This document shows positions 20,765-51,459 of a stretch of DNA of 64,000 bases, piece by piece. The notes under the pieces were generated by a model. The model was not told the origin of the DNA. It saw only the letters and a list, made by a program, of their open reading frames with translations, and ran no database searches. This DNA is from Candidatus Latescibacterota bacterium (GTDB taxonomy: Bacteria > Latescibacterota > UBA2968 > UBA8231), in NCBI GenBank assembly GCA_965223905.1, contig CBDCXV010000009.1, forward strand, positions 800,001-864,000, given 5' to 3'. Position numbers and translations under genes: made by a program. The stretch's first letter is position 1; the number at the start of each line of letters is the position of its first letter.

Positions 20765-21190
20765 TCAGCCGCGCCAACCTTGGGCTGAAGCCCTGACGTA
20801 CAGGTGCCGGCCTATGGCTCCCAGTGCTGCGTCCAGCTGATCCATTCGCGAGTTGTGCTGGACATCCAACACCCGGTCCACCTGCGGCCGGTGCCAGCCG
20901 AGGCGGCGCGCCAGCTCTGCCTTGCCGATGCCCTGCTCGCGCATCCCCTGGTAGAGCATCACCTTGATGGCGGTGAGGGTCGGCAGCACGGCGATTTCCG
21001 GTCCTTGAGAAGGTGCAGGAATATCCCGACCGTCGTGGATACGGGCAGCTATCGCCTCTTCCAGCGCATCGACAGCCCGTGCCAGCGCTTCGTCTCGGTC
21101 CATCCCAAACGTGGTGAGTTCGGGGAAATCCGGTGACGTTGCCAACAGGGTGCCGTCGTCCTCTTCGAGCAGAATGAGATAGGTCAGCAT
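20765..21190 (-). CDS. hicB: HicB-family antitoxin
   Basis: PDFPELTTFG...EAL..A.DALE RNase-H-like fold plus C-terminal HTH (KAELARRLGWHRPQVDR). Confidence 0.9.
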   Translation of the reverse strand: MLTYLILLEEDDGTLLATSPDFPELTTFGMDRDEALARAVDALEEAIAARIHDGRDIPAPSQGPEIAVLPTLTAIKVMLYQGMREQGIGKAELARRLGWHRPQVDRVLDVQHNSRMDQLDAALGAIGRHLYVRASAQGWRG

Positions 21191-21886: not shown

Positions 21887-22535
21887 TTCATACTCCTTGA
21901 AAGGGGGTTAAAATGTTGTATAAGTCCATCATTACAACCATCGGCGTTCTGATTTTCAGAGAGGCCGGGATCTACGTCTGCCGAAAGGCATCGGAAAGGC
22001 TGTATACGGAGAGGCTATTAGTTTAAAGAATCATTCTTCTGCAACTCCGTATCCCCCCCCTTGATCCACCTGAGTAAATCGGCGATCTGCTACGGCTCAC
22101 AGTGCTGTAGCCTGCAACTGCTGAAACCGGCAGGTTTCGGGCAAACAGCGCAAAACAGGCCGATTGTAGCGGGGTTTATAGTTACCATCTTGATCGCGCC
22201 GCCGGCTTCGGGGGCGCGGTGCGGTCGCTGTCCCGGATATGGGGCGCCGGAGCCCCGGGGCAGCGAAGGCGATGGCGCCGCCGGCTTCTCCAGTGGTTCC
22301 GGGCGGCCGCAGAAGATGGCCGGTCCCATGCGGCCGTTAAGCTACAGCCTTGTGCGTCTGTGCTTCCGGATCTTGTAATTCTTCTCTATCGAGATTGCCG
22401 TTACAACAAGACGTGCGGTAACGGTACGAGGCGATACTATTGAAATGCTCGGCGGCGTCTTGCTGTTTGACGCGGGGCTTCTCCCCTTCCAATGACAGAC
22501 GCAGGGCCGCGGGGGTTTTCCTCGTCAGCCTTGCT

Positions 22536-25450
22536 CTTCTCGAGCCCGTCGAGGAGGGGCTGCCGGGTTTCGCGGACCGCCTCCGGCCAGGTGCGACGCC
22601 GCCCCCTTGGCCCTGGTTGCCGCTGTTCCTCCCGGCCGGGCTTTCTGCCTGTCCGCGGGCTGCGGATCCCCGCTGAGATCCGACCGCACGGCCCCTTTCC
22701 AGTCTTGCCCTTTTGTGTCGCAAATTGAGACAGGCGTCGCATATCGCGACACATGGCCCTCACTGCCGCCCCTGGGTTTATATAACCCGTTTATAAACAG
22801 TTGGTTGAACAGTTGACCCCCCTTCAGGCGACCCCCGGGGCAGGCGCAGAAGTGTTTCAAAATGCGACACTCGCCCTCTTTTTCCTCGCTTCACTCCATA
22901 TGGGTTAACCCCTTTATATGCAAGTAGTTAGCTCCATTTCTTCCACGATGGCACAGTCTTTGCATACATCCACAGGATCCGAACGCGCAGGCACCCGGTG
23001 CGTTCCTGCCGGGGCTTCGGCAATCCCGGTCCTGCATGCGGCCGACCTTGCGACTGGAGAACCCCATCGATACTTCCCGCATCCTTGCCGCCCGTCGCTC
23101 CTGGGCCTCTTTCCCGGGTGCCGGCGGTTTCGGATGGCTGCTGGCGGTGCTCGGCTGTCTCGCGGCACCGGGGTCAGGCGCCGCCGCCGCCGCCGGGGCC
23201 GAGCCGCTGCTGGAGGGTCGGGTGCTTCTGTCTTCGGGCGCCCCGGCGGCCGGGGTGCGGGTGCGGCTGTTCGCCGAGCTGGGGCGTTCGCTGGGCGCCA
23301 CCGCGGATGAGAGCGGCTATTTCGCGCTGCCGCTGAACGCCCTGCGCAAGGCCGCGCCCCTTCCGGCGCGCCTGCGCCTGGGTCAGAACTACCCCAACCC
23401 GTTCAACCCCTCGACGATCATCCCGTATCAGCTGCCGGCCCCGGCGCGGGTGCGCCTGGAGGTGTTCAACATCCTGGGTCAGCGGGTGGCCACCCTGGTG
23501 GACGGGGCGCGGCCGGCCGGTTTTCACACGGCGACCTGGAACGGGACCGATGCCTCGGGGCGAGGCGTGGGCTCGGGGGTGTATCTGTACCGGCTTCTTG
23601 GGGGCGGGGAGCGCCTGACGCGGTCGATGGTGCTGCTGGACGGACCGGTGGTCCCGGCGGGTGGAGGGGGCTCCGGCGGGGCGGGGGATCCCTGGAGTGG
23701 AGGAGCCGACGGGGCGGGGGCACCCGCTGCAGGGACCGGCGCGGAGGCGGATGCAGGGAGCTTCGGCGGGGCCGACTCCTGGAGCGGGGCGGCAGGCACG
23801 GCGGGACACGCTGCGGAAAGCGAAGCGGATCCTTGGGGTGGGGCGGTGGGCTCGGCGGATGGGTTCGTTTCTGCGGGTCACCCTCCGGGGAGCGCCGCGG
23901 GTGGAGCGGTCTCCGGGGGTGCGGCCGATCCATCAGACAAGCCCGCAGGAGCAGGAGGTACCGGTCCGGAGAAGTGGGCTCCGGCCGGCGGAGCCGCCTC
24001 CGGGGGGGCGAGTGCAGCGGGTCCGACAGGCGGGATGGGAGCGAGGGCTTCGGCCCGCGGCGACGGGCGGGTCTACGGGCTGACGGTCTCGGGTCCGGGG
24101 CTGGTCCCCTGGGTCGACCCGGCCTTCCGGGTGGGAGCAGGACCGGTCGAGATTCAGGTTCAGCCGCTGTCATCCCGGCCTCGGGGCAAGGTGGCCGCAG
24201 GCGGCCTGCTGGGGGACGTCGACGGCAACGGCCGGGTCGATCTCGCCGACGCCCTGCTGGTCGCCTCGTACAGCGAGGACCCGACCCTGTCCCTGCCCAC
24301 CGGCGACATTTCTCTCGGCGACGTCAACGGGGACGGGCAGGTCAACCTGGCCGACGCCCGGCTCATCGAGGCCTACCACGCCGACCCGTCCGACCCGTCG
24401 CTGCCGGAAGGGATCGGCGCCCCGGTGGCCGCGGCGGATGCGCCGATGCTCTACTGGACGGACGCGGGCAGCGACCGGATTCAGCGGGCCCGCCTGGACG
24501 GCTCCGGGGTCGAGGACGTCGTCGACAGCGGCCTGGTCAACCCGCGCGGCCTGGCGGTGGACTCAGCGGCCGGCAAGCTCTACTGGAGCGACTACGGCAG
24601 CGACCGGATTCAGCGGTCCAACCTCGACGGCTCCGATATCGAGGACTTGGTGACCGCGGGCCTGCAGATCCCCCTGGCCCTGGCTCTGGACGCGGCCGGC
24701 GGCAAGCTCTACTGGACGGACAACGGCACCGACCGGATTCAACGGGCCAACCTCGACGGAACCGAAATCGAGGATCTCGTCACCGGCCTGCGGACCCCGT
24801 TGGGCCTGGCCCTCGACGCGGCCGCCGGCAAGCTCTACTGGACCGACAGCGGCGCCGACCGCATCCAGCGCGCTGAGCTCGACGGCAGCGAAATCGAAGA
24901 TCTGGTGACCGAGGGCCTGCAGATCCCCCGGGGGCTGGCCCTGGATACGGCCGGCGGCAAGCTCTACTGGGCCGACAGCGGCACAGATCGCATTCAACGC
25001 GCCAACCTCGACGGCACGGAAATCGAGGACCTGGTCACCACCGGTTTGGGCACGCCCCGGGGCCTGGCCCTCGACGTTTCTGCGGGCAAGCTCTACTGGG
25101 CCGACAGCAGCACCGACCGCATCCAGCGGTCCAACCTCGACGGCTCTGAAATCGAAGACCTGGTGACCGAGGGCTTGCTGAGCCCCCGGGGCCTGGCCCT
25201 TGCCCGGACTTTGTCCACGGACAACCAGGCCCCTGCCCTGGAGCCGCTGGCGGACCGCACCGCGGCAACCGGCGACTCGCTGACCCTCGAGCTTGCCGGC
25301 AGCGACCCGGACGGAGACGCCCTGACCTACACCGCTTCCTCCGGCGACGAAGCGGTGGCCACGGCGGAAGCCGCCGACTCCCTGGTGACTCTACGGCTGC
25401 TGGCCGTCGGCGAGACCGCCGTCACCGTGACCGCCCGCGACCCGGGGGGC
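22536..25450 (+). repeat. segmental duplication, copy 1 (promoter region plus 5' part of surface-protein gene); copy 2 at ~35103-37680
   Basis: Near-identical noncoding leader and coding start in both places; end coordinate approximate. Confidence 0.9.
22716..22964 (+). promoter_or_regulatory. sigma54 promoter with IHF-like site and three bEBP enhancer-like palindromes
   Basis: TGGCAC-AGTCT-TTGCA at 22949-22964; ATGCAAGTAGTTA at 22918-22930; TGTCGC-N5-GAGACA at 22716, CGTCGC-N5-GCGACA at 22735, TGTTTC-N5-GCGACA at 22853. Confidence 0.85.
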
Positions 25451-28400
25451 CTGCAGGCAACCCGAACCTTCACCGTCACCGTGCAGGCCTCCAACGAGCC
25501 CCCGCTCGCCGTGCCCTGGCTCTACTGGAGCGACGCGCGCACCGACCGCATCCAGCGCGCTGAGCTCGACGGCAGCGACATTCGCACCCTGGTCGGCGGC
25601 CTCGGACAGCCCCGGGACCTCGCCCTCGACCGGGACGGCGGCCGCATGTACTGGACCGACAGCGGCGCCGACAAGATCCAGCGCGCCCACCTCGACGGGT
25701 CGCGGGTCGAAGACCTGGTGACCGAGGGGTTGAAGGAGCCGTTCGGCCTCGCCCTCGATAAGGCCGGGGGCAAGATCTACTGGAGCGACTGGGGCACCGA
25801 CAAGATCCAGCGGTCCAACCTCGACGGCTCCGAAATCGAAGACCTCGTCGCCACCGGTCTGAACGAACCCTACGGCCTGGCCCTCGACCTGGAGGAAGGC
25901 AAGATCTACTGGACCGACTGGGGGGCGGACAAAATCCAACGGGCAAACCTCGACGGCTCCGAAGTCGAGGACCTGGTCACCGGCCTCAACCAGCCCCGGG
26001 GGATCGCCCTCGATCTGGAGGAGGGCCGCATGTACTGGCCCGACTGGGGCACGGACAAGATCCAGCGGGCGAATCTCGACGGCTCCGGTGTGGAAGACCT
26101 GGTCACCGAGGGCCTGAAGACCTCCCAGGCGATCGCCCTCGACCTGGAGGAGGGCCGCATGTACTGGACCGACTACGGCACCGACAAGATCCAGCGGGCC
26201 CACCTCGACGGCAGCCAGGTCGAAGACCTGGTCACTTCCGGCCTGAAGGAGCCCTACGGCCTGACCCTGGGCGCCGGCCTGCCGGCGCAGATCCTGAAAG
26301 TAGAGGGCGACGCGGCGACCCTGAACCTGGCCGGCCGTTTCCGCGACCCGGAGGGAGGCCCCCTGACCCTCACCGCCACTTCCAGCGACGAGGCGGTCGC
26401 CGCCGCGACTCTGGCCGACTCGGTGCTGACCATCGCCCCGGTCGCCCCCGGACAGGTGACCGTCGCGGTCACCGCCCGCGACCAAGGGGGCCGGCACACC
26501 ACTCTGCCGGTCCCGGTGACCGTGTATCCGGCCAACCGTCCCCCGGTGGCCCGGACCCTGGCCGACCGCAGGATCCGCATCGACCGGCCTGCCCGGGTCG
26601 ATCTGACAAGCGCCTTCACCGACCCGGACGAAACAGACGTGCTGACCTACACGGCCGCCTCGAGCAACGAGGCGGTGGCCACCGCAGCCGTCGAGGGGGT
26701 CGGGGTGCTGATCACCCCCAAGACCACCGGGCAGATGACCATCGCGGTGACCGCCCGCGACCCGGAGGGATTGGAGGCGAGCTTGAGCTTCAGAGTCACC
26801 GTCGAGCCCAAGCCGCCCCCCAAGCCGCCGCCCAGGCCTCCGTCGGACTCCAGCAGCAGCAACGACAGTGGCGGAGGAGGGGGTCCTGTAACCCCTCCGC
26901 GACCGCCGCCACCACCACCACCGCCGCCGCCGCCGCCCCCAGGTCCGAACAACGCCCCCACCTTCGACGAGGGCCCGGCCGCCACCCGCAGCGTCGCCGA
27001 AAACACCGGGGCGAACCGGAACATCCAGCACCCGGTCCGCGCCACCGACGACGGACACCGCCTGACCTACCGGCTCTCCGGCACTGACGAGGCCCGCTTC
27101 GCCGTCGTCTCCGGCAGCGGGCAGCTGCGCACCCGGTCCGGGGTCACCTACGACTTCGAAGCCAAGGACCGCTACGAGGTGACGGTGGAAGTCGACGACC
27201 CCTACGGCGGAACCGACGCCATCGACGTGACCGTGCACGTGGCCGACATCGACGAACCTCCCCAGGCCCCGGGCAGGCCTCAGGTCGACCCGGCTTCATC
27301 CACCAGCCTGACGGTAACCTGGACCGAGCCGGCCAACACCGGCCCCGACGTCCACGACTACGACGTGCAGTACCGCAAGAGCGGCAGCTTCCTCCCCTGG
27401 CCGCACACCGGCCCCGGCACCGCCGCCACGATCCCGGACCTGGAGGTCAACACCCGTTACGAGGTGCAGGTGCGGGCGCACAACGACGAAGGCGAGAGCT
27501 CCTGGTCCGCCTCCGGCTTCGGGACGACCAGCGCCAACCAGCGGCCGGTATTCGACGAATCCGCTCCGACGCGCAGCCTCGACGAGAACACCACCGGAAC
27601 ACAAGACATCGGCGCCCCGGTGAGGGCGACCGATCCGGAGAACACGGCGCTGACCTACCGCCTCTCCGGACGGGACGCGAGCTCCTTCACCCTCGACGAG
27701 AACAACGGCCAGCTGCGCACCCGCCCCGGCGTCGCCTACGACTTCGAAACCCGGAGTCGCTACTCGGTTACGGTGGAGGCAACCGACGAGCCGGGCGGCG
27801 GAACGACCGTCACCGTGACCATCGAACTGATCGACGACGACAACGAGCGGCCGGACCGGCCCGACCGGCCCACGGTGACAGCCTCGACGCTGAACAGTCT
27901 ATCCATTCGCTGGACCGCCCCGGCCAACACCGGTCCCGACATCCACGACTACGACGTGCAGTACAGCGAAGACGGCGGCACCTTCGGCGACTGGCCGCAC
28001 ACCGGACCGGGCACGAGCACGACGATCACCAGCCTGACCGCGGACACGCGCTACCAGGTGCAGGTGCTCGCGCGTAGCCCGGAAGGCGAGAGCCTCTGGT
28101 CCCAATCAGTTGAAGTGAGAACCGTCGCCAACCAGGCGCCCACGTTCAGCGAAGGATCGCGCACCTCGCGCAGTCTGGACGAGAACACCGCCGGGACGAA
28201 CGACATCGGCAACCCGGTGACCGCCACCGACAACGACGGAGGGACGCTGGACTACCGGCTCGCCGGCACCGACGCGGCCCACTTCGACCTCGACGCGAAC
28301 GACGGACAGCTCGAGACCCGATCAGGCGAGACCTACGACTTCGAGGAGAAGGCCCGCTACGAGGTGACGGTGCGCGTCGAGGACGGCCAGGGCGGCAGCA

Positions 28401-31400
28401 ACACCATCGAGGTGACGATCAATCTGAGAGACGAAACCGAACCGCCCGAGGACCCGGCAGCACCCAGCGTCTCGGCGGCCTCCTCGACCAGCCTGACGGT
28501 GACCTGGGCGGAGCCGGCCACTACCGGCCCCGACATCAGCGACTACGACGTGCAGTACCGCGAAGGGGACAGCGGCAGCTTTTCTTCCTGGTCCCACAAC
28601 AGCGCCGAGCGTACCGCCACCATCACCAGCCTGACCCCGGACACCGACTACCAGGTGCAGGTGCTGGCCCGCAACGCCGAAGGAGCCAGCGACTGGTCCT
28701 CCTCCGGCACGGGAAGCACCGACCCCAATCAGCTGCCGGTGTTCACCGACGGGTCGAGCGCCACCCGCCGCCTCGACGAGAACACCACCGGCGTTGAGGA
28801 CGTCGGCGATCTGGTCGGCGCTACCGACCCGGAGAACACCCCCCTGACCTACAGCCTCGAAGGCACGGATGCGGATGCCTTCGCCATTGACACACGCAGC
28901 GGCCAGTTGAGGACCGACGGGGACGAGACCTACGACTACGAGACGAAGCCCCGCTATGTTCTGAGGGTCAAAGCGACCGACGGGCATGGCCGCGATCGCA
29001 CCATCCCCGTGTTAATAAGCCTGAACGACCTCAACGAGGCTCCGGAGTTCATCAGCGACGCGGCCTTCGAGGCGGCGGAGAACCAGACCTTTGCCGGCCT
29101 GGTGGAAGCCGAGGACCTCGATGGCGCCGACCGCGTCACGAACTACACCCTCACCGGCGGGGCCGACCAGGACCGGTTCGAGATCAACAGCGCAGGGGTG
29201 CTGGCCTTCAAGGATGACCCCGACTTCGAGAAACCCGCGGATTCCGGGAGGAACAACACATACAATGTGGCGGTCACGGCCACCGGCGGCTCGGGAGGCC
29301 GCGCCCTGACCGCGGAACAAGCGATCACCGTCACCGTCACCGACGAGAACGAGCCGCCGGCTTTCACCAGCGACGATGCCTTCACGGTCAAGGAAAACGA
29401 GCGCTTCGCCGGCCGGGTTGCTGCCGGGGACGTCGATAGAGACGATGCCATCACCGGCTACGAGGTAACCGGCGGGGCCGACGGGAGCCGGTTCGAGATC
29501 GCCAATACCCACGAGTTGCGCTTCAAGGAGGATCCCGACTTCGAGCGGCCGGCGGATGCGGGAGGAAGCAACGAATACAGCGTGGTGGTAGAGGCCACCG
29601 GCGGCACCGGGATCCGGGAGCTGACCGCGACGCAGACGGTCACCGTCATCGTGGAGGATGTAGACGAGCCGCCGGGCAAGCCGGAGCCGCCGACCATAGC
29701 TGCCAGGAAGCGGAACAGTTTGACCGTGCGCTGGACGGCACCCGCCAACACCGGGCCGGACATTGCGGACTACGGGGGGCAATACGGAATAGCCGGCAGC
29801 GGTACCGTCGAGGGCGGCTGGGACCGCGTCGGCACGGCCACGGAGGCGACGGTCGACAATCTGTCTGCGGACACGGCCTACGAAATACAGGTGCGGGCGA
29901 CGAGTGCGGAAGGGAAGAGCGGCTGGTCGGAACCGGCGGAGGGACGGACCGAAGAGAACCGGGTTCCGGTTTTCGGCGAGGGGCCGAGCACGAGGCGCGA
30001 GCTCGCGGAGAACACGGCCGCCCATGTGAACGTCGGCCTGCCGGTGACGGCAACCGACGCCGACGCCGACAGGCTCATCTACAGCTTGGAACGCCCGGCA
30101 GAGAGCCCGTTCACCATCGATTCACCTAGCGGTCAACTCAAGACGAGAGACGGTGTGGCATACAATCACGAGGAGCAGTCCGAGCATGCGGTAACGGCGC
30201 GCGTGGAGGACGGCCATGGCGGCAGTGCGACGATTGTCGTGACCGTTGCCATTCTGGATGTCGAGAACTCCGCAATAACCGCGGATGCCGGATGGGACCT
30301 GACGGTGGCGGCCGGCGGAACCGGCTATCTGGACGGCACGGGCTCGAGCACCGAGGAAGGTGAGTTGAGCTGGTCCTGGTCGCTGCTCTCCTGGCCGGGA
30401 GACGACCCGCCGGCGCTGGACGACCCGGCCAGCCCGACCCCGTCGTTCGCCGCGGCCGCCGAGGGGACCTACGCCGTTCGGCTCGCGGTCAGCAACGGCA
30501 GCCAGAGCGCCAGCGACGAGGTGCTGGTCACGGTACGGCCATCGGCGGAGGCCGGCCTGCTGGTCACGGCCGACCTGTTGGCGGACACCAACCGGGACGG
30601 CCGGGTGGATCCGTCCGACGAGCCCGGCGAGAACACCTCGACCGAGGCTTCCGGAGCCCTGTTCGGTCTCAATGCGGATGATGATGACGGGGATGGGGTT
30701 CAGGACGGGTGGGACGATCGGGCGAACGGCGATGCGGACCTCCTGGACACGGCGCCCGTGGTGGTGAGGCGGATCTCCGGGCTGCACAGAAACCACTCCG
30801 TCGTGCTGGAAATGGCCTACCAGTCGGTGTTGCAGGACGAATTTGCCTGGACGTCCGTCGGCCCGCAATTGTTCTACCAACGGGCGGACGGCGACGTCGA
30901 GCTGTTGATTGCCGGCGGCGACCTGCGGGCGGAGCTACCGATCGATCAACTGGTTGCCGGCGACCTGCGCCTGTACATCGAGAGCCGGTTCGGACGACAC
31001 TTGCACTTCGATGGAAAGCTCTCGCTCACGCTGACCGTCCGGGACGGTGGATCCGCGATATCGCAGGACAGGGTCGTCCTGCGGGCGAGTCCGATCCTGT
31101 TCTCGCATCATCTGCAGCCCGCCGAGCGGGTGTTCGTGGTGGGAATCCCCGCCTGGGATTCTCTCTCCAACACGGCGCTCCTCGACGCCCTGGAGGCCCA
31201 TCTGCCCGCGTCGACCGAACTGTACCGGCTCGATTCCTCGACATACGATAACGACCGCTGGATTCAGGATTCCATGGAGACCGGCTATGTGCAGCGGCCT
31301 TCCGCCGCCGGAGTGGAGACGGCGGCGGTTCACACGCAGATGCTTCGCGGTCGCGGCCTCCATCGCTTCCTGCCGGAAGAGTATCTGAGCGCGGAAGTGG

Positions 31401-32251
31401 GCTATGTGTACCCCAGCGGCGTATCCGGCACCAGCTTCAACTACGGCGGCAACGTGGAGGTCATTCCACCGTATACACACAACGGCAGAACCTGGTCTTT
31501 CGGGCGCCTGGTGATCGGCGACAATCCAACCCGCCGGGACTGGGCAATGGACCGCTGGCAGTTTGCCTTCTTCGAGTCACAAGGTGTGCAGGGGCCGCCG
31601 ATCGAGGTAGACACGAGCTGGCTCACGGTCTCCCATGTCGATGAGCTGTTCTCGGCGCTTCCCAACCACAATGCGGCGCCGGGAGAGAGACCCTGGGTCA
31701 TCGCCATCGCCTCGCCCGCGCTGGCCGTCGAGTTGCTCGAGGAGGCAGTGGAGCAAGGCTACGGCGACGCGCCCGTATTCGAGGGCCGCGGGTCTGATGA
31801 AACCACGGCACAGGAGATGCTGGCCGACCGCCGCCTCATGGCCGCAAACGACGACGCACAGCGGCGGATCGACACCGTGCGGGAGCGATTGATGACGGAG
31901 GCGGGCCTTGCGGACAGCGACTTCCGGGAAGTGCCGGCCCTGTTCTACGAGTTTTTCCACAATGAACTGTCTTATGGAATGCTGGCTCTGGTTCCCAGCA
32001 TTCAGAACCTGCTCGTGGTCGACGACGTGCTGTTCGTCTCCGACCCGGAGGGGCCGGACGTGGACGGAACGGACATATTGCAACAGGCGACTCTCGATGC
32101 GGTGGAAGGCCTTGGCCTGGAAACCCATTTCGTCGACGTCTACCACAGCTACCACATCCTGGCCGGGGCCATCCACTGCGGGACCAACGCCGAGCGCGCA
32201 GCATCGACCACTTCCTGGTGGCTCGGCGTCGAAACGGAGGACTCCGAATGA
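23036..32251 (+). CDS. giant surface/secreted protein: FlgD-Ig/T9SS-CTD-like, dockerin-like, two YWTD (LDLR class B) propellers, Ig/cadherin/FN3/PKD repeats, C-terminal protein-arginine deiminase
   Basis: QNYPNPFNPST; GDVDGNGRVDLADAL x2; about 12 LYWTD repeats; cadherin (..EN...IG.PV.ATD) and FN3 (SLTVTW..P..Y.VQYR) repeats; PAD motifs DRWIQD, GGNVEVIPP, WLTVSHVDE and GAIHCGTN. Confidence 0.9.
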   Translation: MRPTLRLENPIDTSRILAARRSWASFPGAGGFGWLLAVLGCLAAPGSGAAAAAGAEPLLEGRVLLSSGAPAAGVRVRLFAELGRSLGATADESGYFALPLNALRKAAPLPARLRLGQNYPNPFNPSTIIPYQLPAPARVRLEVFNILGQRVATLVDGARPAGFHTATWNGTDASGRGVGSGVYLYRLLGGGERLTRSMVLLDGPVVPAGGGGSGGAGDPWSGGADGAGAPAAGTGAEADAGSFGGADSWSGAAGTAGHAAESEADPWGGAVGSADGFVSAGHPPGSAAGGAVSGGAADPSDKPAGAGGTGPEKWAPAGGAASGGASAAGPTGGMGARASARGDGRVYGLTVSGPGLVPWVDPAFRVGAGPVEIQVQPLSSRPRGKVAAGGLLGDVDGNGRVDLADALLVASYSEDPTLSLPTGDISLGDVNGDGQVNLADARLIEAYHADPSDPSLPEGIGAPVAAADAPMLYWTDAGSDRIQRARLDGSGVEDVVDSGLVNPRGLAVDSAAGKLYWSDYGSDRIQRSNLDGSDIEDLVTAGLQIPLALALDAAGGKLYWTDNGTDRIQRANLDGTEIEDLVTGLRTPLGLALDAAAGKLYWTDSGADRIQRAELDGSEIEDLVTEGLQIPRGLALDTAGGKLYWADSGTDRIQRANLDGTEIEDLVTTGLGTPRGLALDVSAGKLYWADSSTDRIQRSNLDGSEIEDLVTEGLLSPRGLALARTLSTDNQAPALEPLADRTAATGDSLTLELAGSDPDGDALTYTASSGDEAVATAEAADSLVTLRLLAVGETAVTVTARDPGGLQATRTFTVTVQASNEPPLAVPWLYWSDARTDRIQRAELDGSDIRTLVGGLGQPRDLALDRDGGRMYWTDSGADKIQRAHLDGSRVEDLVTEGLKEPFGLALDKAGGKIYWSDWGTDKIQRSNLDGSEIEDLVATGLNEPYGLALDLEEGKIYWTDWGADKIQRANLDGSEVEDLVTGLNQPRGIALDLEEGRMYWPDWGTDKIQRANLDGSGVEDLVTEGLKTSQAIALDLEEGRMYWTDYGTDKIQRAHLDGSQVEDLVTSGLKEPYGLTLGAGLPAQILKVEGDAATLNLAGRFRDPEGGPLTLTATSSDEAVAAATLADSVLTIAPVAPGQVTVAVTARDQGGRHTTLPVPVTVYPANRPPVARTLADRRIRIDRPARVDLTSAFTDPDETDVLTYTAASSNEAVATAAVEGVGVLITPKTTGQMTIAVTARDPEGLEASLSFRVTVEPKPPPKPPPRPPSDSSSSNDSGGGGGPVTPPRPPPPPPPPPPPPPGPNNAPTFDEGPAATRSVAENTGANRNIQHPVRATDDGHRLTYRLSGTDEARFAVVSGSGQLRTRSGVTYDFEAKDRYEVTVEVDDPYGGTDAIDVTVHVADIDEPPQAPGRPQVDPASSTSLTVTWTEPANTGPDVHDYDVQYRKSGSFLPWPHTGPGTAATIPDLEVNTRYEVQVRAHNDEGESSWSASGFGTTSANQRPVFDESAPTRSLDENTTGTQDIGAPVRATDPENTALTYRLSGRDASSFTLDENNGQLRTRPGVAYDFETRSRYSVTVEATDEPGGGTTVTVTIELIDDDNERPDRPDRPTVTASTLNSLSIRWTAPANTGPDIHDYDVQYSEDGGTFGDWPHTGPGTSTTITSLTADTRYQVQVLARSPEGESLWSQSVEVRTVANQAPTFSEGSRTSRSLDENTAGTNDIGNPVTATDNDGGTLDYRLAGTDAAHFDLDANDGQLETRSGETYDFEEKARYEVTVRVEDGQGGSNTIEVTINLRDETEPPEDPAAPSVSAASSTSLTVTWAEPATTGPDISDYDVQYREGDSGSFSSWSHNSAERTATITSLTPDTDYQVQVLARNAEGASDWSSSGTGSTDPNQLPVFTDGSSATRRLDENTTGVEDVGDLVGATDPENTPLTYSLEGTDADAFAIDTRSGQLRTDGDETYDYETKPRYVLRVKATDGHGRDRTIPVLISLNDLNEAPEFISDAAFEAAENQTFAGLVEAEDLDGADRVTNYTLTGGADQDRFEINSAGVLAFKDDPDFEKPADSGRNNTYNVAVTATGGSGGRALTAEQAITVTVTDENEPPAFTSDDAFTVKENERFAGRVAAGDVDRDDAITGYEVTGGADGSRFEIANTHELRFKEDPDFERPADAGGSNEYSVVVEATGGTGIRELTATQTVTVIVEDVDEPPGKPEPPTIAARKRNSLTVRWTAPANTGPDIADYGGQYGIAGSGTVEGGWDRVGTATEATVDNLSADTAYEIQVRATSAEGKSGWSEPAEGRTEENRVPVFGEGPSTRRELAENTAAHVNVGLPVTATDADADRLIYSLERPAESPFTIDSPSGQLKTRDGVAYNHEEQSEHAVTARVEDGHGGSATIVVTVAILDVENSAITADAGWDLTVAAGGTGYLDGTGSSTEEGELSWSWSLLSWPGDDPPALDDPASPTPSFAAAAEGTYAVRLAVSNGSQSASDEVLVTVRPSAEAGLLVTADLLADTNRDGRVDPSDEPGENTSTEASGALFGLNADDDDGDGVQDGWDDRANGDADLLDTAPVVVRRISGLHRNHSVVLEMAYQSVLQDEFAWTSVGPQLFYQRADGDVELLIAGGDLRAELPIDQLVAGDLRLYIESRFGRHLHFDGKLSLTLTVRDGGSAISQDRVVLRASPILFSHHLQPAERVFVVGIPAWDSLSNTALLDALEAHLPASTELYRLDSSTYDNDRWIQDSMETGYVQRPSAAGVETAAVHTQMLRGRGLHRFLPEEYLSAEVGYVYPSGVSGTSFNYGGNVEVIPPYTHNGRTWSFGRLVIGDNPTRRDWAMDRWQFAFFESQGVQGPPIEVDTSWLTVSHVDELFSALPNHNAAPGERPWVIAIASPALAVELLEEAVEQGYGDAPVFEGRGSDETTAQEMLADRRLMAANDDAQRRIDTVRERLMTEAGLADSDFREVPALFYEFFHNELSYGMLALVPSIQNLLVVDDVLFVSDPEGPDVDGTDILQQATLDAVEGLGLETHFVDVYHSYHILAGAIHCGTNAERAASTTSWWLGVETEDSE

Positions 32252-33327
32252 GGATTTTCGCATCCCCGTTGGCCGCCTCGCTCTGGGTTCTGTCTGCCGC
32301 TACGGCGATGGCCCAGGCACAGCCCGCCTCGGAATTGGTCGAAAGCCTGCTCGACGAGCGCGGAGACGCCTACGTGGCGGCCCGCGAGGCGTTGCTGGAC
32401 CGGCAGGACATCGTCGACGTGGCCCGGGCAGCCCTGGAATCGACGGCCTACGGACCTTCGACCTGGCTGCCCCTGGTCCTCACCGAGGCGCTGGCCATGC
32501 ACGTGACCCACCGGGAGGAAGCCGAACGCCTGCAGGACCTTGAGGGACTGGACAGCGGCCGCTACCTGCTGAGCAGAGTGCCGGCCCCCTCGGCGGCGCG
32601 CGAGCTGAGCCGGTTGCGGCACGTCGCCCCCCTCATGATCGAGCTCTTCTTGAAGGGCGTGGAGACCTATGAGTGGTCGAGCGCGGCCACCGCGGAAGCG
32701 GAGGAGGAGGCGCTGCGGCGGGACCTGCTCGTGGCCATCGGCCGATCGGACCACCCGGCGAGCGTCTACTTCCTGACGGATGTGATCGAAGGAGGATGCG
32801 CCTGTTGCGAGTCCTGCAACACGGCGGTCACTGCGCTTGGCGAAACCGGGTCCATCCAGGCTTTGCCGGTCTTGCTCGAATTCCTGGACGAAGCCCGCGG
32901 CGACAAGGACGTGGAAGAATACGCGACCGCGGTCGCAGCGCTCGGCAGGATACGAAATGCCCGGATCTGGCCTTATCTCGAGGTGGAATTGGACAGCGCC
33001 GACCCGCGCATACGAGAAGCGGCCGTTCGCAGCGCCGGCGCCTACGGAAGCCGCTGGTACTGGAGGGACAAGCCGGTCCAGGGTGCCGGGATCCGTGCCG
33101 CCATCGGGTCGTCCTTGCTCGACGTGCTCTCCGGGGCGGAAGACGAAGGGGTTGTTCTGGCGACACTGGAGTCGATCGGCAGCGTGGCAACGACGGAGCT
33201 TCGGGATCTGCTCGAACAGAAGCGGACCCGTTCGCGCGGGGTGGAACAACACCGGTTGCAACGGGCATTGGACCGGGTGAACCGGACCCTGGCAAGGGAG
33301 CAGGGCGGCATGGACGGGGCGCGTTAG
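32248..33327 (+). CDS. secreted HEAT-repeat protein
   Basis: ATGA overlap with the PAD gene; signal peptide ending AMA/AQA; HEAT repeats (AVTALGETG, AVAALGRI, IREAAVRS); CACCESC motif. Confidence 0.75.
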   Translation: MRIFASPLAASLWVLSAATAMAQAQPASELVESLLDERGDAYVAAREALLDRQDIVDVARAALESTAYGPSTWLPLVLTEALAMHVTHREEAERLQDLEGLDSGRYLLSRVPAPSAARELSRLRHVAPLMIELFLKGVETYEWSSAATAEAEEEALRRDLLVAIGRSDHPASVYFLTDVIEGGCACCESCNTAVTALGETGSIQALPVLLEFLDEARGDKDVEEYATAVAALGRIRNARIWPYLEVELDSADPRIREAAVRSAGAYGSRWYWRDKPVQGAGIRAAIGSSLLDVLSGAEDEGVVLATLESIGSVATTELRDLLEQKRTRSRGVEQHRLQRALDRVNRTLAREQGGMDGAR

Positions 33328-33525: not shown

Positions 33526-34448
33526 ATGGCTAACCCTGAAATCGATGAAACGGAACCCCTGAAGGAAGTCGAAGACGAAGAAGATGATTCGGTAGCACCG
33601 GTACGCTATGGAATTACCAGCTTCGGGGTAGATTTCGATGTCGAGGGGCTGTGCCGCCGGATTGGACGTGGAGAAATCGTCGTTCCGCCTTTCCAACGAA
33701 GTTATGTCTGGAGTATGCGACAGGCATCGAGATTCATTGAATCCCTGCTGTTGGGCTTGCCGGTTCCCGAAATCTTTTTGTCACGTGACTTTGATTCAGA
33801 AAAATATGTGGTTATTGACGGGCAACAGCGCCTGAAAACCATACAGTTCTTCTACGACGGCAATTTCAGTCTATCCACTGAGGAAAATTCAGGGAAAACT
33901 TTCAAGTTGATAGGGGTCCAGCAGGAATTCGAAGGTCTAACGTACGAGCAACTGCCACCCGGCGACCAGTTTCGTCTCAACAACTCCGTCATTCACGCGA
34001 CAGTTGTGAAACAGGATGTGCCATCGAAGGACAATACGAGTGTGTACCACATCTTCGACAGGATCAACAGTCACGGAGTTCGCCTGACTCCCCAAGAGAT
34101 GCGCAGCGCTATTTATCACGGAAGGCTTATCGACAGATTGGGCACTCTTAACGATAACCCCATCTGGCGGTCTGTCTTCGGAAGAAGGAATTTGATCATG
34201 CGCTAGGAAGTGGCGCTTTCCGGCCCGACCGCGCCCTGAACGCCGCAGTGTTCGATTCAATGTCGGTCGCATTGGCTCAGAAAATAGTCTCATCGGAACG
34301 CGCTCCAAAGCCTGAAGATATAAAAATGGCACACGCTGATCTGCTAAGTGACCTCGAATACCAGGAGGCTGTATCCCGCACCACGGCAAACGAGCACTCT
34401 GTGAGAACACGCATGAAAAAAGCCATGGAACGCTTCGGGTCCTTGTAA
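33526..34448 (+). pseudogene. DUF262 (GmrS/ParB-like) domain protein with internal deletion
   Basis: PPFQRSYVW, SRFIESLLLGLPVP, VIDGQQRL and IFDRIN..G..LTPQE.R motifs; at ~34190 it jumps out of frame into a C-terminal piece AFRPDRALNAAVFDSM...RFGSL. Confidence 0.82.
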
Positions 34449-34614: not shown

Positions 34615-35290
34615 ATCCGAAATGCGGTTTGTTCCGAGGATGGTTCGCCCTGTCTGGCTGGGTGCTAAACGATTTTCTCCCTGCACAGCCTGACCGGCCC
34701 TGATCTCCATAGCTTTGCCCATCCCCGATTTTCAAGGGGTCTGCTCAGCGGCTCAAAAGGCGGTAGGCGGAAGACTGCTGGAAGACCTGATTCCTCCTGT
34801 TCCTGCCAATCCCAAGAAATCGCACAACACCCTTCGTTTTTGATTTTGCTCCCGCCTCAGACCCGCTCCACCCGCGGCTGCGCCTTCCCGTGGGTGGGGT
34901 CCCAGAGGTAGCCGCGCCGCTTCTCTCCCTCCGTAGGTAGTCTCCAAGTAGACCGCCCGCACCGGCTCGCTAACGAGCGGGAAGTCGTGGTGGTGCCCCA
35001 TCCCGGTGGCCACGCCGTCCCCTGCGGACACCTCGTACTTCATCTCTTCCGAATACGGCGACGCCGCTGCCGGGAGAACAGGATCCAGTACTCGTCGCAG
35101 CCCTTCTCGAGTCCGTCGAGGAGGGGCTGCCGGGTTTCGCGGACCGCCTTTCGGCCGGGTGCGACGCCGGCCCCTTGCCCTGGTTGCTGCTGTTCCCCCC
35201 GGCCGGGCTGTCTGCCTGTCGGCGGGCTGCGGATGCGGGCCCTCCCCGCTGATTCGACCGCACGGGCCCACTTCCTGCCGTGCCCTTTTG

Positions 35291-35539
35291 TGTCGCAAAG
35301 TGAGACAGGCGTCGCATATCGCGACACATGGCCCTCCCTGCCGCCCCTGGGTTTATATAACCCGTTTATAAACAGTTGGTTGAACAGTTGACTCCCCTTC
35401 GTACAACCCCCGGAGCAGGCGCAGGAGTGTTTCAAAATGCGACACTCGACCCCTTTTCCCCGGCTTCTCCTGAATTTCTTCAACTCGTTTATCTGCAAGT
35501 AGTTAGCTTGATTTCTTCCCAGATGGCACAGTCTTTGCA
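35291..35539 (+). promoter_or_regulatory. second copy of sigma54 promoter, IHF-like site and enhancer boxes
   Basis: TGGCACAGTCTTTGCA at 35524-35539; boxes at 35291, 35310 and 35428; CAAGTAGTTA near 35496. Confidence 0.85.
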
Positions 35540-35610
35540 TACATCCACAGGATCCGAACGCGCAGGCCCCCGGTGCGTTCCTGCCGGGGCTTCGGCACCC
35601 CCGGTCCTGC

Positions 35611-37992
35611 ATGCGGCCGACCTTGCGACTGGAGAACCCCATCGATACCTCCCGCACTCTGGCGGCCCGGCGCTCCTCGGCCTTTTTCCCGGGTGCCGGC
35701 GGTTTCGGATGGCTGCTGGCGGTGCTCGGCAGTCTCGCGGCACCGGGGTCAGGCGCCGCCGACGCCGCCGGGGCCGAGCCGCTGCTGGAGGGTCGGGTGC
35801 TTCTGTCCTCGGGCCCCCCGGTGGCCGGGGCCCGGGTGCGGCTGTTCGTCCAGGGCGACCTGGGGCGCTCGCTGCGGGCCACGGCGGATGAGAGCGGCTA
35901 CTTCGCCTTTCCCCTGAAGGCCCTGCGCCGTGCCGCGCCCCTTCCGGCGCGCCTGCACCTGGGCCAGAACTACCCCAACCCGTTCAATCCCTCGACCATC
36001 ATCCCCTATCAGGTACCGGTGGCGACCCGTTTGCGCCTGGAGGTGTTCAACATCCTGGGTCAGCGGGTGGCGACCCTGGTCGACGGGGAGCGCCCGGCCG
36101 GTTTCCACACGGCGACCTGGAACGCGACCGATGCCTCGGGGCGAGGCGTGGGCTCGGGGGTGTACCTGTACCGTCTGCTGGGGGGCGGGGAGCGCCTGAC
36201 GCGGTCGATGGTGCTGCTGGACGGACCGGGGGTCCCGGGGGGTGGAGGGGGTTCGGGCGGGGCGAGGGCTTCGGCCCGCGGCGAGGAGAAGCTCTACGGA
36301 CTAATAATCTCGGGTCCTGGGCTGGTCCCCTACGTCGACCCGGCCTTCCGGGTGGGGGCCGGTCCGGTCGAGATCCAGGTCGAAACGCTGTCCCGCCTGC
36401 CCCGCGCAAAGGTGGCCTCCGGGGGTCTGCTGGGCGACGTCAACCGGGACGGCCGGGTCGACCTCGCCGACGCCCTGCTCATCGCCTCCTACAGCGAGGA
36501 TCCGACCCTGTCCCTTGCCAACGGCGACATCACCCTGGGAGACGTCAACGGGGACGGCCAGGTCGATCTCGCCGACGCCCGGCTCATCGAGGCCTACCAC
36601 GCCGATCCGTCCGACCCGTCGCTGCCGGAAGGGATCGGCGCCCCGGTGGCCGCGGCGGATGCGCCGATGCTCTACTGGACGGACGCGGACGGCGACCGCA
36701 TTCAGCGCGCAAACCTGGACGGCTCCGGGATCGAGGATGTCGTCGACAGCGGCCTGGTCAATCCGCGCGGCCTGGCCGTGGACTCAGCGGCCGGCCAGCT
36801 CTACTGGACCGACTACGGCAGCGACCGCATCCAGCGGTCCAACCTCGACGGCTCCGAAGTGGAGGACCTGGTGACCACCGGTCTGCGCATCCCCTTGGGG
36901 CTGGCCCTGGACACGGTCGCGGGCCAGCTCTACTGGACCGACAATGGCACGGACAAGATCCAGCGCGCCAATCTCGACGGCTCCGAAGTGGAAGACCTCG
37001 TCACCGGCCTGCAGACGCCGTTGAGCCTGGCTCTCGACACGGCCGCGGGCAAGCTCTACTGGACCGACAGCGGCAGCGACCGGATCCAGCGGGCCAACCT
37101 CGACGGCTCCGAAGTGGAGGACCTGGTGACCACCGGCCTGGACCTTCCCCGGGGGCTGGCCGTGGACGCAGCCGGCGGCAAGCTCTACTGGACGGACAAC
37201 GGCACCGACCGGATCCAGCGCGCCAACCTCGACGGCTCCGAGGTGGAAGAGCTGGTGACCGAGGGACTGCACACGCCCCGGGGCCTGGCCCTCGATCCGG
37301 ACGCGGGCAAGCTCTACTGGACGGACAGCGGCACCGGCAAGATCCAGCGGTCCAACCTCGACGGCTCCGGAATCGAAGACCTGGTGACCGAGGGCCTGCT
37401 GAGTCCGCGGGGCCTGGCCCTGGTGCGAACCGCTGGGGCGGTCGGCAACCGGGCCCCCACCTTGGCGCCACTGGCCGACCGGACCGCGGCGGCCGGCGAC
37501 ACCCTGACCCTGGCGGCGGCCGCCAGCGACCCGGACGGCGACGCCCTGACCTACGCGGCTTCATCGAGCGACGAGGCGGTAGCCCGGGTCGAGGCGGCCG
37601 ATTCCCTGGTGACCGTCTACCCGCTGTCCGCGGGCCGGGCCACGATTGCGGTGACCGCCCGCGACCCGGAGGGCCTGGAGGCGGTGCAGCGCTTCGCCGT
37701 CCTCGTCGGAGCCGCGAACCTCGGGCCCGTCCACCGGCTCTACTGGACGGACGCGGAGGCGGACCGGATCCGGCGGTCTCACCTGGACGGCTCCGGGGTG
37801 GAGGACGTCGTCGACAGCGGCCTGGTCAACCCGCGCGGCCTGGCTCTGGACGCAGTCGCCGGCAAGCTCTACTGGACCGACTACGGCAGCGACCGGATTC
37901 AACGGTCCAACCTCGACGGCTCTCAAGTGGAAGACCTGTCCACTGTTTTGGTATTTCATACCATTTCCTACCCAACCGTAAAGTTTCTGTAA
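35611..37992 (+). pseudogene. paralogous YWTD-repeat surface protein, interrupted at ~37938 by the integrated element
   Basis: Same N-terminal architecture as 23036; the YWTD repeat breaks at ..NLDGSQVEDL| into AT-rich unrelated sequence. Confidence 0.85.
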
Positions 37993-38123: not shown

Positions 38124-39293
38124 ATGCAACGTCCCAAAATGCTCTCGGCAACCTTCGTGCGAAACGTGAACCGGTCCGGCCGCTACGGCGACGGGCGCGG
38201 CGGCTTCGGGCTCTCGCTGCTGGTCAAGCCTAGGGAGGACAACGGGCGGCTGTCCAAGACGTGGAGCCAGCGGCTGCGAATCGACGGGGAGCTGACCAAC
38301 GTCGGGCTCGGGCCGTATCCGCTAGTGACGCTCAAGGAGGCGCGGGACAAGGCGCTGACCAATCGCCGCGCCGTCGAGCAGGGCTCAGACCCCCGCGCCC
38401 AACGCGCCGCCTCCCGCGTTCCCACCTTCGCCGCCGCCGCCGAGGCCGTCATCCGGATTCACGCCGAGACCTGGAAGAACGGGGGCCGGTCGGAGGACAA
38501 CTGGCGCAAGAGTCTCGGCGAGTACGCCATGCCGAAGCTCGGGCGCAAGCCGGTGGACAAGATCACCACGTCGGACGTGCTGGCCGTCATCACGCCGATC
38601 TGGTCGTCGCGGCGGGAGACGGCCAAGCGGGTGCGCCAGCGCATCTCGGCGGTGATGAAGTGGGCGGTTGCCGAGGGCCACCGCGAGGACAACCCGGCCG
38701 GCGACGCCATCCAGGCGGCCTTGCCGAAGAACGAGACGGTGAAGGTCCACTACAAAGCCTTGCCGCACGGCGAGGTAGGCGCGGCCCTGCGCACGATGCG
38801 GGGCGTCGACACCTGGCCGCTGAAGAAGCTGGCTCTCGAGTTCCTCGTGCTCACGGCGACGCGCTCCAATGAAGTCCGGGGGGCGCGCTGGGACGAAATC
38901 GACGGGGAGGCGTGGACGATCCCGGCCGAGCGCATGAAAAAGGGCAGGGAGCACCGGGTGCCGCTGGCTCGGCGAGCCCTGGCGGTGCTGGAAGAGGCGC
39001 GCGCCTTCGACGACGGCTCGGGGCTGGTGTTCCCCAGCTCGCGCGGCGGCAAACAGTCGGATGGGTCGCTGTCGCAGTTCGTCAAGCACCTGGGCATTGC
39101 CGCGGTGCCGCACGGGTTCCGGAGCAGCTTCCGCGATTGGGCCGCCGAGTGCTCGGCCGCGCCCCGGGAGGTCTGCGAACTCGCCCTGGCCCACGTCAAC
39201 GACGACCAGACGGAAGCGGCCTACCGGAGAAGCGATCTGTTCGATCTGCGCCGCAAGCTGATGGAGGATTGGGAGGCGTATCTGGAGGTCTGA
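38124..39293 (+). CDS. tyrosine integrase, P4/IntA-like with arm-binding domain
   Basis: YGDG..GLSL.V, GLGPYPLVTL.EAR arm domain; catalytic ATRSNE, MKKG.EH.VPL, PHGFRSSF, LAH and AY.R. Confidence 0.95.
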   Translation: MQRPKMLSATFVRNVNRSGRYGDGRGGFGLSLLVKPREDNGRLSKTWSQRLRIDGELTNVGLGPYPLVTLKEARDKALTNRRAVEQGSDPRAQRAASRVPTFAAAAEAVIRIHAETWKNGGRSEDNWRKSLGEYAMPKLGRKPVDKITTSDVLAVITPIWSSRRETAKRVRQRISAVMKWAVAEGHREDNPAGDAIQAALPKNETVKVHYKALPHGEVGAALRTMRGVDTWPLKKLALEFLVLTATRSNEVRGARWDEIDGEAWTIPAERMKKGREHRVPLARRALAVLEEARAFDDGSGLVFPSSRGGKQSDGSLSQFVKHLGIAAVPHGFRSSFRDWAAECSAAPREVCELALAHVNDDQTEAAYRRSDLFDLRRKLMEDWEAYLEV

Positions 39294-50559: not shown

Positions 50560-51148
50560 CTCTTTTTTCGTAAGGGTGCAGGACGTTTCGCGAAACCGGC
50601 CACATAAAGGCTCAGGCGGTTTCGCTGAATAGCGGGGCGGTGCTGGACAATGCAAGCGCCGCCAGGACGTTTCATTAAGTTGCGAATTTAGCCCGGACAG
50701 CGCCGCGTCCGCCCGCCTCGGGACCGCTTGCCCCTGCTGGACCCCGTTCCGGGAGAAAGGAGGAACGCTCGAAGGAGAGCCCGATCACAAGGCCGGGGGC
50801 CTATCCTTGCGCTGCTTTATAGCGCCAGGATAGAGAGAAGGGGGACGCTCTTCCTCAAAGATCGTCCTTGGTACCTGGGCGGTTTTCAGTGCAACAACCA
50901 ACACCCGGGGGGGGGGTGAACAATTGAGACACCCCCGGTCAGGGGGGTATCCTCACGCTGTTTTTTGACCCGTCGCAGAAACGAATCCAACTTATGACAA
51001 TACTATGGCCATTTTGATTATCCCTATACTTCATAAGGAGTTATCAGAGTTTTCAGGATTGGACTCCTTTTCTCGTTTTTGTCACATATTCCATTCGAAC
51101 GTCGATTTGCACCTGGAAATAGGGAAATCCACGAAAAAGGGGTGAACA

Positions 51149-51457: not shown

Positions 51458-51459
51458 GA

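Follow-up and report, generated by a model that had tools for sequence, protein, structure and literature searches.

A 64,000-nucleotide stretch of the genome of a Candidatus Latescibacterota bacterium (assembly GCA_965223905.1, contig CBDCXV010000009.1, positions 800,001 to 864,000 of the forward strand), referred to here as the window, carries a giant gene whose product ends in a module that belongs, by its sequence, to PF03068, the family of the vertebrate peptidyl-arginine deiminases (PADs). An earlier note, made from the letters of the window only, had described this end as an animal-type PAD at the tip of an adhesin-like protein. The analysis reported here has indicated that the giant protein is probably an exported, stalk-mounted, calcium-dependent peptidyl-arginine deiminase, and that the HEAT-repeat protein encoded immediately downstream is, as part of the same reading, probably its dedicated and co-exported partner (regulator, inhibitor or chaperone), located in the same compartment as the PAD.

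The features of the giant gene and of its partner gene are the following (Ig, immunoglobulin-like; LDL, low-density lipoprotein; T9SS, type IX secretion system; pLDDT, predicted local distance difference test):

23036..32251 (+): whole gene, coding for a putatively exported multidomain protein of 3071 residues with a C-terminal PAD; domain content from Pfam and NCBIfam.
23036..23647 (+): conserved N-terminal leader, residues 1-204, with a signal-peptide-like hydrophobic stretch, a CarboxypepD_reg-like region and a FlgD_ig/T9SS type-A-sorting-like domain.
24209..24373 (+): dockerin type I, residues 392-446 (PF00404, 34.8 bits, cut-off 22.9).
24437..26260 (+): two six-blade YWTD (LDL-receptor class B) propellers, residues 468-715 and 826-1075 (PF00058, E 7.5e-103, 12 stretches).
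Within 24437..26260 (+): PKD domain between the two propellers, residues 730-816 (PF00801/PF18911).
26819..26944 (+): proline-rich hinge, residues 1262-1303, read off the translation.
26948..30265 (+): alternating cadherin-like, Big_9 and FN3 repeats, residues 1305-2410 (Cadherin 7, fn3 4 and Big_9 5 stretches).
30287..30535 (+): K319L-like PKD domain, residues 2418-2500, immediately ahead of the PAD module (PF22352, 34.6 bits).
30560..31057 (+): PAD_M-like Ig domain, residues 2509-2674, aligned to PAD4 115-~295 and to PAD1, with the Ca3/4/5 ligands; model pLDDT >90.
31058..32221 (+): PAD catalytic domain, residues 2675-3062, with D2745, H2867, D2869 and C3048 (PF03068, 266 bits).
32248..33327 (+): partner gene, coding for a 359-residue HEAT-repeat protein with a Sec signal peptide; its ATG overlaps the TGA of the giant gene (ATGA).

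The giant gene is a single open frame, and the PAD module (the last 563 residues) is the C-terminal end of its product, with nine residues beyond the PAD match. The stalk of YWTD propellers, cadherin, FN3 and PKD repeats proposed in the earlier note was recovered by Pfam (12 Ldl_recept_b stretches, seven Cadherin, four fn3, and PKD), and YWTD, YWSD and YWAD repeats can be read in the translation of the propellers. Three elements were added to that description by Pfam and NCBIfam: the Big_9 Ig-like domains, present also after the second propeller and ahead of the proline-rich hinge, the dockerin, and the N-terminal FlgD_ig/T9SS-like domain at residues 119-196 (TIGR04183, 28.4 bits, cut-off 23; PF13860, 35.7 bits), with a Gly/Ala/Ser-rich linker between the last two.

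PF03068 matched residues 2675-3062 with E 5.6e-79 and 266.4 bits (cut-off 25), from position 2 to 394 of the 395 positions of the profile, which is well outside chance expectation, and the same match was obtained in the genome scan. It was the sole Pfam family matching the last 563 residues at E <= 10, a search in which PF04371, the family of Porphyromonas PAD (PPAD) and the agmatine deiminases, did not appear. A phmmer search against all PDB chains matched 27 distinct sequences, all of them PADs, including PAD1 (5hp5, E 2.9e-57, query 6-555) and PAD4 (E 2.2e-53, query 4-555 aligned to chain 118-663); because the PAD4 alignment spans chain 118-663, the match includes the PAD_M Ig domain. An AlphaFold model built with a 75-row alignment (A1) reached a mean pLDDT of 94.7 and a predicted template modelling score (pTM) of 0.93. 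When this model was compared with the PDB by Foldseek, the top match was human PAD4 (8r8u_A, E 7.2e-55, TMq 0.84), PAD1 gave a TMq of 0.86 over ~575 aligned columns, the template modelling (TM) scores of the human PADs ranged from 0.82 to 0.86, and all 50 matches listed were PAD1/2/3/4/6. The model superposes on PAD4, with no better match in another pentein family among those listed, and the assignment to the PAD family rather than to the Porphyromonas PPAD/agmatine-deiminase type, made in the earlier note by eye from motifs, was borne out. In the Pfam comparison that it had proposed, the PAD profile was strong and PAD_porph was absent, with PAD_M below threshold.

Residues were numbered according to PAD4 through chain 3apn_A, in which the chain index equals the PAD4 number plus 3, as verified at C645. 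Counting from the module start at 30560, residues D237, H359, D361 and C540 of the module are encoded at 31268, 31634, 31640 and 32177; they are D2745, H2867, D2869 and C3048 of the whole protein and align to D350, H471, D473 and C645 of PAD4, as had been claimed from the motifs. The equivalents of PAD4 H644, W347, R372 and R374 are also kept. All the motifs quoted earlier (ADTNRDG, LNADDDDGDG, DLLD, DRVVLRASP, DRWIQD, NYGGNVEVIPP, WLTVSHVDE and GAIHCGTN) are present in the translation, and their codon coordinates are exact. The acidic segments, taken as resembling calcium-binding sites, map onto the Ca3/4/5 ligands of PAD4, all seven of which are conserved (N153, D155, D157, D165, D168, D176 and D179), as are the Ca1 ligands Q349, E353 and E411. 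Catalytic activity and calcium dependence are expected of the module, the former because the catalytic machinery is fully kept and because Streptomyces PADs without a Ca2 site work in vivo; the cyanoPADI of Cyanothece, which is active, calcium-dependent and promiscuous, supports the expectation of activity in bacterial PADs. In some other members of the family the catalytic residues are lost: the homologs P0067, P0160 and P0205 show HSYT, HSHR or MDHR instead of HDHC, and the loci L026 and L033 read D-H-T-N and D-Q-D-S, respectively. These five are possible bacterial pseudo-PADs.

Cummings et al. (2021, PMC8826395) assign the three-domain type of PADI, with PAD_N and a Ca2/Ca4 switch, to animals and late-diverging cyanobacteria, and the two-domain type to fungi, actinobacteria and proteobacteria; a divergent Ca2/Ca4 motif, an HHH linker and a Ca6 site with D125N/E131D are given there as marks of the latter. 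No Pfam match to PAD_N (PF08526) was obtained in the giant protein, in which a PKD domain precedes PAD_M instead. The linker between PAD_M and PAD_C is SHH in the module (two of the three His) versus HHH in the two Streptomyces rows of A1, and the DTNRDGRVD segment fits the pattern D-x-N...D, the Ca6 site being mappable only with a PADI2 alignment. A FastTree phylogeny was calculated from 204 homologous PAD_M + PAD_C modules plus this module (205 rows, 548 columns); this tree and the following one were rooted at midpoint only, so that no branching order is claimed. The module fell within a clade of 73 rows with support 99, from which the three animal-signature rows, the two Streptomyces rows and those of Lyngbya and Polyangiaceae are all absent, and whose sole named member, a protein of Pseudoteredinibacter isoporae, carries a CBM96 domain. 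The three animal-signature rows were placed in a separate 7-row clade (support 100) whose members were identified by Pfam as being of three-domain type (PAD, 426-574 bits; PAD_M, 102-184 bits; PAD_N in two of the seven), whereas this module scores 266 bits on PAD and stays below threshold on PAD_M. A second tree of 228 rows, built without L031, L038, L040 and L022 (whose match contains an internal stop), again located the module outside the three-domain clade and outside the Streptomyces clade.

Since it has no PAD_N, no Ca2 site and a position in a separate, well-supported bacterial clade, the module is classified from its sequence as a probable two-domain bacterial PAD (PAD_M + PAD_C), the type described by Cummings et al., in a clade of its own. 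The term animal-type used in the earlier note is therefore right for family and fold and wrong for subtype, and the phylogeny that it had suggested groups the module with bacterial rows, apart from both the animal-signature and the Streptomyces ones.

The architecture is real. Logan contigs from three sequencing runs of three studies (X1, X3 and X5) span both the PKD/PAD and the PAD/partner junctions, and half or more of the sampled words were present in ten runs from at least four studies. The insertions and deletions in contigs from other runs add up to in-frame changes, and of the 19 listed variants checked in the module, 9 are synonymous. No RNA runs were listed among the sequencing runs holding the sequence. 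A HMMER search of 1.84 billion representatives yielded 1953 matches at E <= 1e-3 and 459 at E <= 1e-30. Fewer than 50 residues follow the PAD module in 201 of the 204 full modules, so the module is C-terminal in them, and 44 of the 204 have an N-terminal extension of at least 300 residues; the 2508-residue extension of the giant is the longest, the next being 2309 residues. Fusions of PAD with a stalk are common in metagenomes. The nearest relatives (48-69% identity, ~950-1480 residues) share the order FN3-cadherin-PKD-PAD, including the PKD-PAD junction, and homologs of 48-98% identity have the same architecture; PADs of other clades are fused to S8 subtilases, an amine oxidase, OmpA/peptidoglycan-binding domains or a lipase-like domain. 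The protein P0235 (2116 residues), from another assembly, has the same C-terminal domain order and is 95-100% identical to the giant over residues 2105-3071 and 60-86% identical over residues 1305-2104.

The partner gene is preceded by GGAGG located 7-11 nucleotides upstream of its ATG, and in the protein a clear Sec signal peptide (MRIFASPLAASLWVLSAATAMA/QA) at the start is followed by HEAT_2 repeats. The pairing was analyzed in 36 other PAD loci drawn from genome (3 distant loci) and metagenome collections, with metagenome relatives of at most 37% identity; the close FN3-cadherin-PKD-PAD relatives (48-69% identity) are not among these 36. A downstream open reading frame (ORF) was listed in 31 of the 36 loci, and in 21 of them a same-strand ORF of at least 100 residues starts between -80 and +400 nucleotides from the PAD stop (L034, L036, L037, L045 and L046 fall outside this listing and inside the all-frames control). 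A hidden Markov model (HMM) iterated from the partner recruited 12 of the 21 downstream ORFs, which is 12 of the 36 loci, always directly 3' of the PAD. As a control, the same HMM was applied to all 1266 stop-to-stop frames of at least 100 residues in the 36 loci (291,745 bases), and it recovered the same 12 and none of the other 1254. In the source genome (G000) it matched 7 of 35,869 frames, with 224 bits for the partner and 41 bits for the next best. In the closest locus (L015, PAD 37% identical) a stand-alone, lipoprotein-like PAD is followed, with a 19-nucleotide overlap, by a HEAT protein with a signal peptide. Eight partner-bearing loci could be placed in the 228-row tree, and they are distributed over three major PAD clades: that of this module, one with three-domain rows and one with Streptomyces and Polyangiaceae.

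PAD and partner agree on the presence or absence of a signal peptide in five of the six pairs readable by eye, L027 being ambiguous, and the partner has no signal peptide in 4 of the 12 loci. A complex predicted from the PAD module and residues 24-359 of the partner gave a score of 0.02, with a mark of 0.32, a result that counts neither for nor against binding. The idea that PADs without a partner are pseudo-enzymes was rejected, since 13 of the 15 aligned partner-less loci keep D/H/D/C. In two metagenomic loci (L016:1-777 and L020:1-1600) the PAD is accompanied by a HEAT partner without signal peptide, and a Cys-rich N-terminal extension of unrecognised type (...CCF(I/A)TRN...) stands ahead of PAD_M; both frames reach the contig edge.

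The distribution of the different parts of the giant has also been determined. Of 168 genomes of the phylum (52 of high quality), a single one gave a PF03068 match, and among 41 genomes comprising G000 and 40 relatives (2 of the same genus) the match was in G000 only. By contrast, large frames beginning with the first 118 residues of the leader are present in 5 of 25 genomes (4 of 24 relatives), both same-genus genomes among them, and the 204-residue leader starts at least 13 large frames in G000, of 471-4128 residues and 62-93% identity. Among nine leader paralogs, the C-terminal 700 residues contain Peptidase_M8 in two, PPDK_N in two and only YWTD or CARDB repeats in five. The enzyme-tipped giants other than the PAD one are the following:

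G000 C2:125216-137599 and C2:179633-191926: Peptidase_M8 (leishmanolysin-like) giants, 4128 and 4098 residues.
G000 C11:56777-64255 and C2:173017-178341: PPDK_N (PEP/pyruvate-dikinase nucleotide-binding) giants, 2493 and 1775 residues.

An exported PPDK_N tip on leader-bearing giants is odd. The first M8 giant is followed by an ATGA-overlapping ORF of 209 residues with a signal peptide (G000 C2:137596 onward). On sequence grounds, the stalk scaffold and its leader are a lineage trait, and the FN3-cadherin-PKD-PAD(+partner) cassette is probably a horizontal acquisition grafted onto this native scaffold, because PAD was found in a single genome of the phylum while the leader recurs and because the tip of P0235 is nearly identical although the upstream part has diverged.

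With regard to export and display, PorU was detected in G000 above the cut-off (617 versus 420 bits). A second candidate component is the following:

G000 C11:1257103-1259721, equal to L048:604-3222 (- in L048): 873-residue cohesin protein with a lamin-tail domain, a cohesin at residues 216-320 (29-33 bits, cut-off 24.1) and a C-terminal FlgD_ig/T9SS-like domain at residues 805-855.

This protein is a plausible candidate surface anchor for the dockerin-bearing giants, and a dockerin-cohesin display pair is complete by sequence, with the dockerin on the giant and the cohesin on the candidate anchor in the same genome. FlgD_ig/T9SS-sorting-like domains of the kind found at 23390-23623 in the window occur at ~149 places in G000.

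In the mechanism proposed from these data, the giant would be a Sec-exported surface or extracellular protein of a bacterium of the Fibrobacteres-Chlorobi-Bacteroidetes (FCB) group, tethered to the cell by its N-terminal leader and dockerin, possibly on the T9SS-anchored cohesin protein, and the propellers and the cadherin/FN3/PKD repeats would form a long stalk. The RpoB of this bacterium has 80-84% identity to proteins of metagenome-assembled genomes labelled Candidatus Latescibacterota or Gemmatimonadetes, its nearest named relatives. The distal PAD would turn peptidyl-arginine into citrulline on the proteins that it contacts, removing positive charge, and the translationally coupled, secreted HEAT protein would act on or with the PAD in the same compartment. 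Proteins belonging to particles, prey, competitors or a host are candidate targets. By removing arginine charge, the enzyme could make protein matrices looser for the M8-tipped paralogs, weaken cationic peptides or liberate ammonia.

Several results weigh against this interpretation. The signal peptide of the giant was judged by eye, with no predictor, and Pfam PAD_M (PF08527) gave no match in the module. The T9SS-like domain lies near the N-terminus of the 3071 residues and not at the extreme C-terminus, which is the PAD, so that the outer-membrane route and the anchored end are guesses; we know of no T9SS mechanism that explains an N-terminal sorting-like domain such as that of the leader family. 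The Ca2 ligands E351/D369/S370/N373 of PAD4 are replaced by S/Q/M/G and the switch residue D388 is E, and consequently calcium regulation may differ from that of PAD4. In alignment A1, four rows with ~113 extra N-terminal residues, one of them a Microcebus murinus PAD, read E/D/S/N-or-D/D, and the two Streptomyces rows, like this module, lack the Ca2 ligands. The base composition of the module (GC 0.642, genome 0.638), like its GC content at third codon positions, is no different from that of the genome or the stalk and gives no sign of a recent transfer. As for the partner, it was not found in 24 of the 36 loci, for some of which the sequence available downstream is too short; of the 15 partner-less loci on the 228-row tree, 12 belong to a single clade of 27. 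Identity within the partner family is 14-24%, as in a very divergent HEAT-repeat family, and the partner profile also matches generic HEAT proteins in a large database. None of the 66 longer matches to the partner profile is a PAD-HEAT fusion, all being generic HEAT proteins, which is weak evidence, and a protein-cluster search with the partner returned generic HEAT clusters only.

A more far-reaching interpretation, possible though doubtful, is that PAD and HEAT protein form an ancient enzyme-inhibitor (or effector-immunity) pair spread over three PF03068 clades, and that a horizontally acquired FN3-cadherin-PKD-PAD-partner cassette on native leader-tagged, dockerin-bearing giants would work as a contact-dependent citrullination device against surface or matrix proteins of other organisms. 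It is unlikely that the leader-sharing giants as a whole are contact weapons resembling polymorphic toxins, in which the PAD would citrullinate surface or periplasmic proteins of a competitor or host and the HEAT protein would be the immunity protein or inhibitor. Such a function would be consistent with a common leader (62-93% identity) on at least 13 giants with variable tips (PAD, two Peptidase_M8 and two PPDK_N), with a tightly coupled partner whose signal peptide matches the compartment of the PAD, with the agreement of compartments in five of the six readable pairs and with a near-identical tip cassette on diverged giants, which suggests cassette exchange. However, a coupled downstream ORF was present at only two of the five enzyme-tipped giants (PAD and one M8), and none was found at the second M8 giant or at either PPDK_N giant; the Pfam scan of the giant protein showed no known toxin-trafficking domain (RHS, filamentous haemagglutinin, PT-TG etc.), and no precedent for PF03068 as a polymorphic toxin was found in the literature searched. 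The partner is also encoded beside stand-alone PADs and beside apparently cytoplasmic ones, and together with the four partners without signal peptide this is more in keeping with a general PAD accessory than with an immunity protein.

It is quite improbable that the PAD acts on a small and specific substrate (such as a ribosomal peptide that is secreted, or one partner protein, perhaps the HEAT protein) with the stalk serving only for localisation. The only bacterial two-domain PAD with an in vivo role in the sources cited here acts on a lasso peptide whose gene lies at another place in the genome, and a conserved, co-translated partner could be a substrate or a substrate adaptor. Nevertheless, Pfam recognised no genes of the type associated with ribosomally synthesised and post-translationally modified peptides among the 20 neighbouring ORFs, and an adhesin-like stalk of 2500 residues would be hard to explain; the conservation of R374 and W347, which hold the peptide backbone in PAD4, does not separate broad from private substrates. 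Finally, it is barely credible that the tip serves for binding without catalysis or is a relic in decay, or that the fusion is an assembly artefact: some family members have lost their catalytic residues (P0067, P0160, P0205, L026 and L033) and PADI6 is an inactive animal paralog according to PDB titles, but here all catalytic and substrate residues are intact in a frame open over 3071 residues, and the junction-spanning contigs of three studies, the in-frame indels, the synonymous variants and the shared architecture of homologs with 48-98% identity all speak against it.

The probable stalk-mounted deiminase can be compared with known systems. Bacterial PF03068 PADs are already known, and databases label such proteins as protein-arginine deiminase. 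The module resembles human PAD1 and PAD4 (5hp5, 8r8u and 1wda) in its PF03068 match, in the PAD_M + PAD_C fold (TMq 0.84-0.86) and in having identical catalytic D/H/D/C, W347, R372, R374 and Ca1 and Ca3-5 ligands, but its identity to the human enzymes is 26-30% among the Foldseek matches listed, it lacks PAD_N and the Ca2 site and has E for D388, and it would be exported on a 2500-residue stalk, whereas human PAD is a cytosolic or nuclear enzyme of 663 residues. The two-domain PADIs, including those of Streptomyces, likewise consist of PAD_M + PAD_C only, with catalytic residues kept and Ca2 ligands not kept; the Streptomyces rows differ in belonging to another clade and in being ~600 residues long with an N-terminal extension of only 12-40 residues. 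PPAD of Porphyromonas gingivalis is a surface or extracellular peptidyl-arginine deiminase of a T9SS-bearing organism of the FCB group, with a C-terminal T9SS domain, and is thus alike in concept, but it belongs to PF04371, and the T9SS-like domain of the giant is N-terminal instead. In the preprint of Harris et al. (10.1101/2020.07.16.207027), PPAD is given as calcium-independent, a Streptomyces PF03068 PAD is reported to act in vivo on citrulassin, and 837 bacterial PF03068 PADs are described as having highly diverse gene contexts; no conserved PAD neighbour is named in it, supplementary figure S10 aside. The cyanoPADI of Cyanothece sp. 8801 belongs to the same family and is calcium-dependent, citrullinating foreign proteins (mammalian proteins were assayed; PMC8826395, section 9), but its PAD_N, though degenerate, and its Ca2/Ca4 switch residues are both missing from this module, which is outside the three-domain clade. 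The words signal peptide, secreted, fusion, fibronectin, cadherin and operon are absent from the main text of Cummings et al. (PMC8826395); tables of architectures or neighbourhoods may be present in the supplements of that paper and of the preprint. In the literature searched, nothing was found on stalk-mounted PF03068 PADs, on this clade or on the HEAT partner.

Other features of the window and its repeats in the genome are the following:

33526-34206: gene whose product has a GmrSD_N restriction-endonuclease N-terminal domain (E 6.7e-31), flanked by the PAD-partner pair and by the truncated paralog.
35611..37992: truncated paralog of the giant, 793 residues, with a leader 88% identical, a dockerin, one YWTD propeller and the start of a second.
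37870-~49300: ~11.5-kb element, with copies at G000 C9:417116-429292 and C10:96721-87130 (three genome copies, 78-97% identity).
38124..39293: tyrosine integrase at the start of the element (Arm-DNA-bind_3, Phage_int_M and Phage_integrase).
20765..21190 (-): weak HicB-like match.

No tRNA genes were found in the window. A duplicate of positions 22533-25458, which take in 500 promoter-proximal bp and ~2.4 kb from the start of the giant gene, lies 12.5 kb downstream, at 35100-37992, with 83-89% nucleotide identity. Each copy of the ~11.5-kb element directly follows a truncated leader/YWTD paralog with the tail ...EDLSTVL(V/A)FHTISYPTV(K/A)FL, and it looks like an integrative element targeting YWTD-repeat coding sequence. 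A further repeat of 1.1 kb is shared between positions 50915-52000 and G000 C11:375909-376994 with 95% identity.

The biology of bacterial PADs is almost blank, being limited to one lasso-peptide substrate and one cyanobacterial enzyme assayed on mammalian proteins. A PAD exported on an adhesin-like stalk of 2500 residues would imply extracellular citrullination by an environmental, non-pathogenic bacterium under conditions in which calcium is not limiting. Many bacterial PADs appear to have a dedicated HEAT-repeat partner gene, an obvious candidate for a regulator or inhibitor, and the presence of a PAD cassette in a phylum otherwise devoid of PAD, on a scaffold that also bears M8 and PPDK_N tips, would represent a natural form of modular enzyme display. 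Should activity and binding of the partner be confirmed, the pair could provide a calcium-tunable citrullination tool with a built-in inhibitor. If the reading as an ancient pair and contact-dependent device were true, it would be the first example beyond the unrelated PPAD of Porphyromonas, and it would offer a handle on the roles that PADs had in bacteria before animals acquired them.

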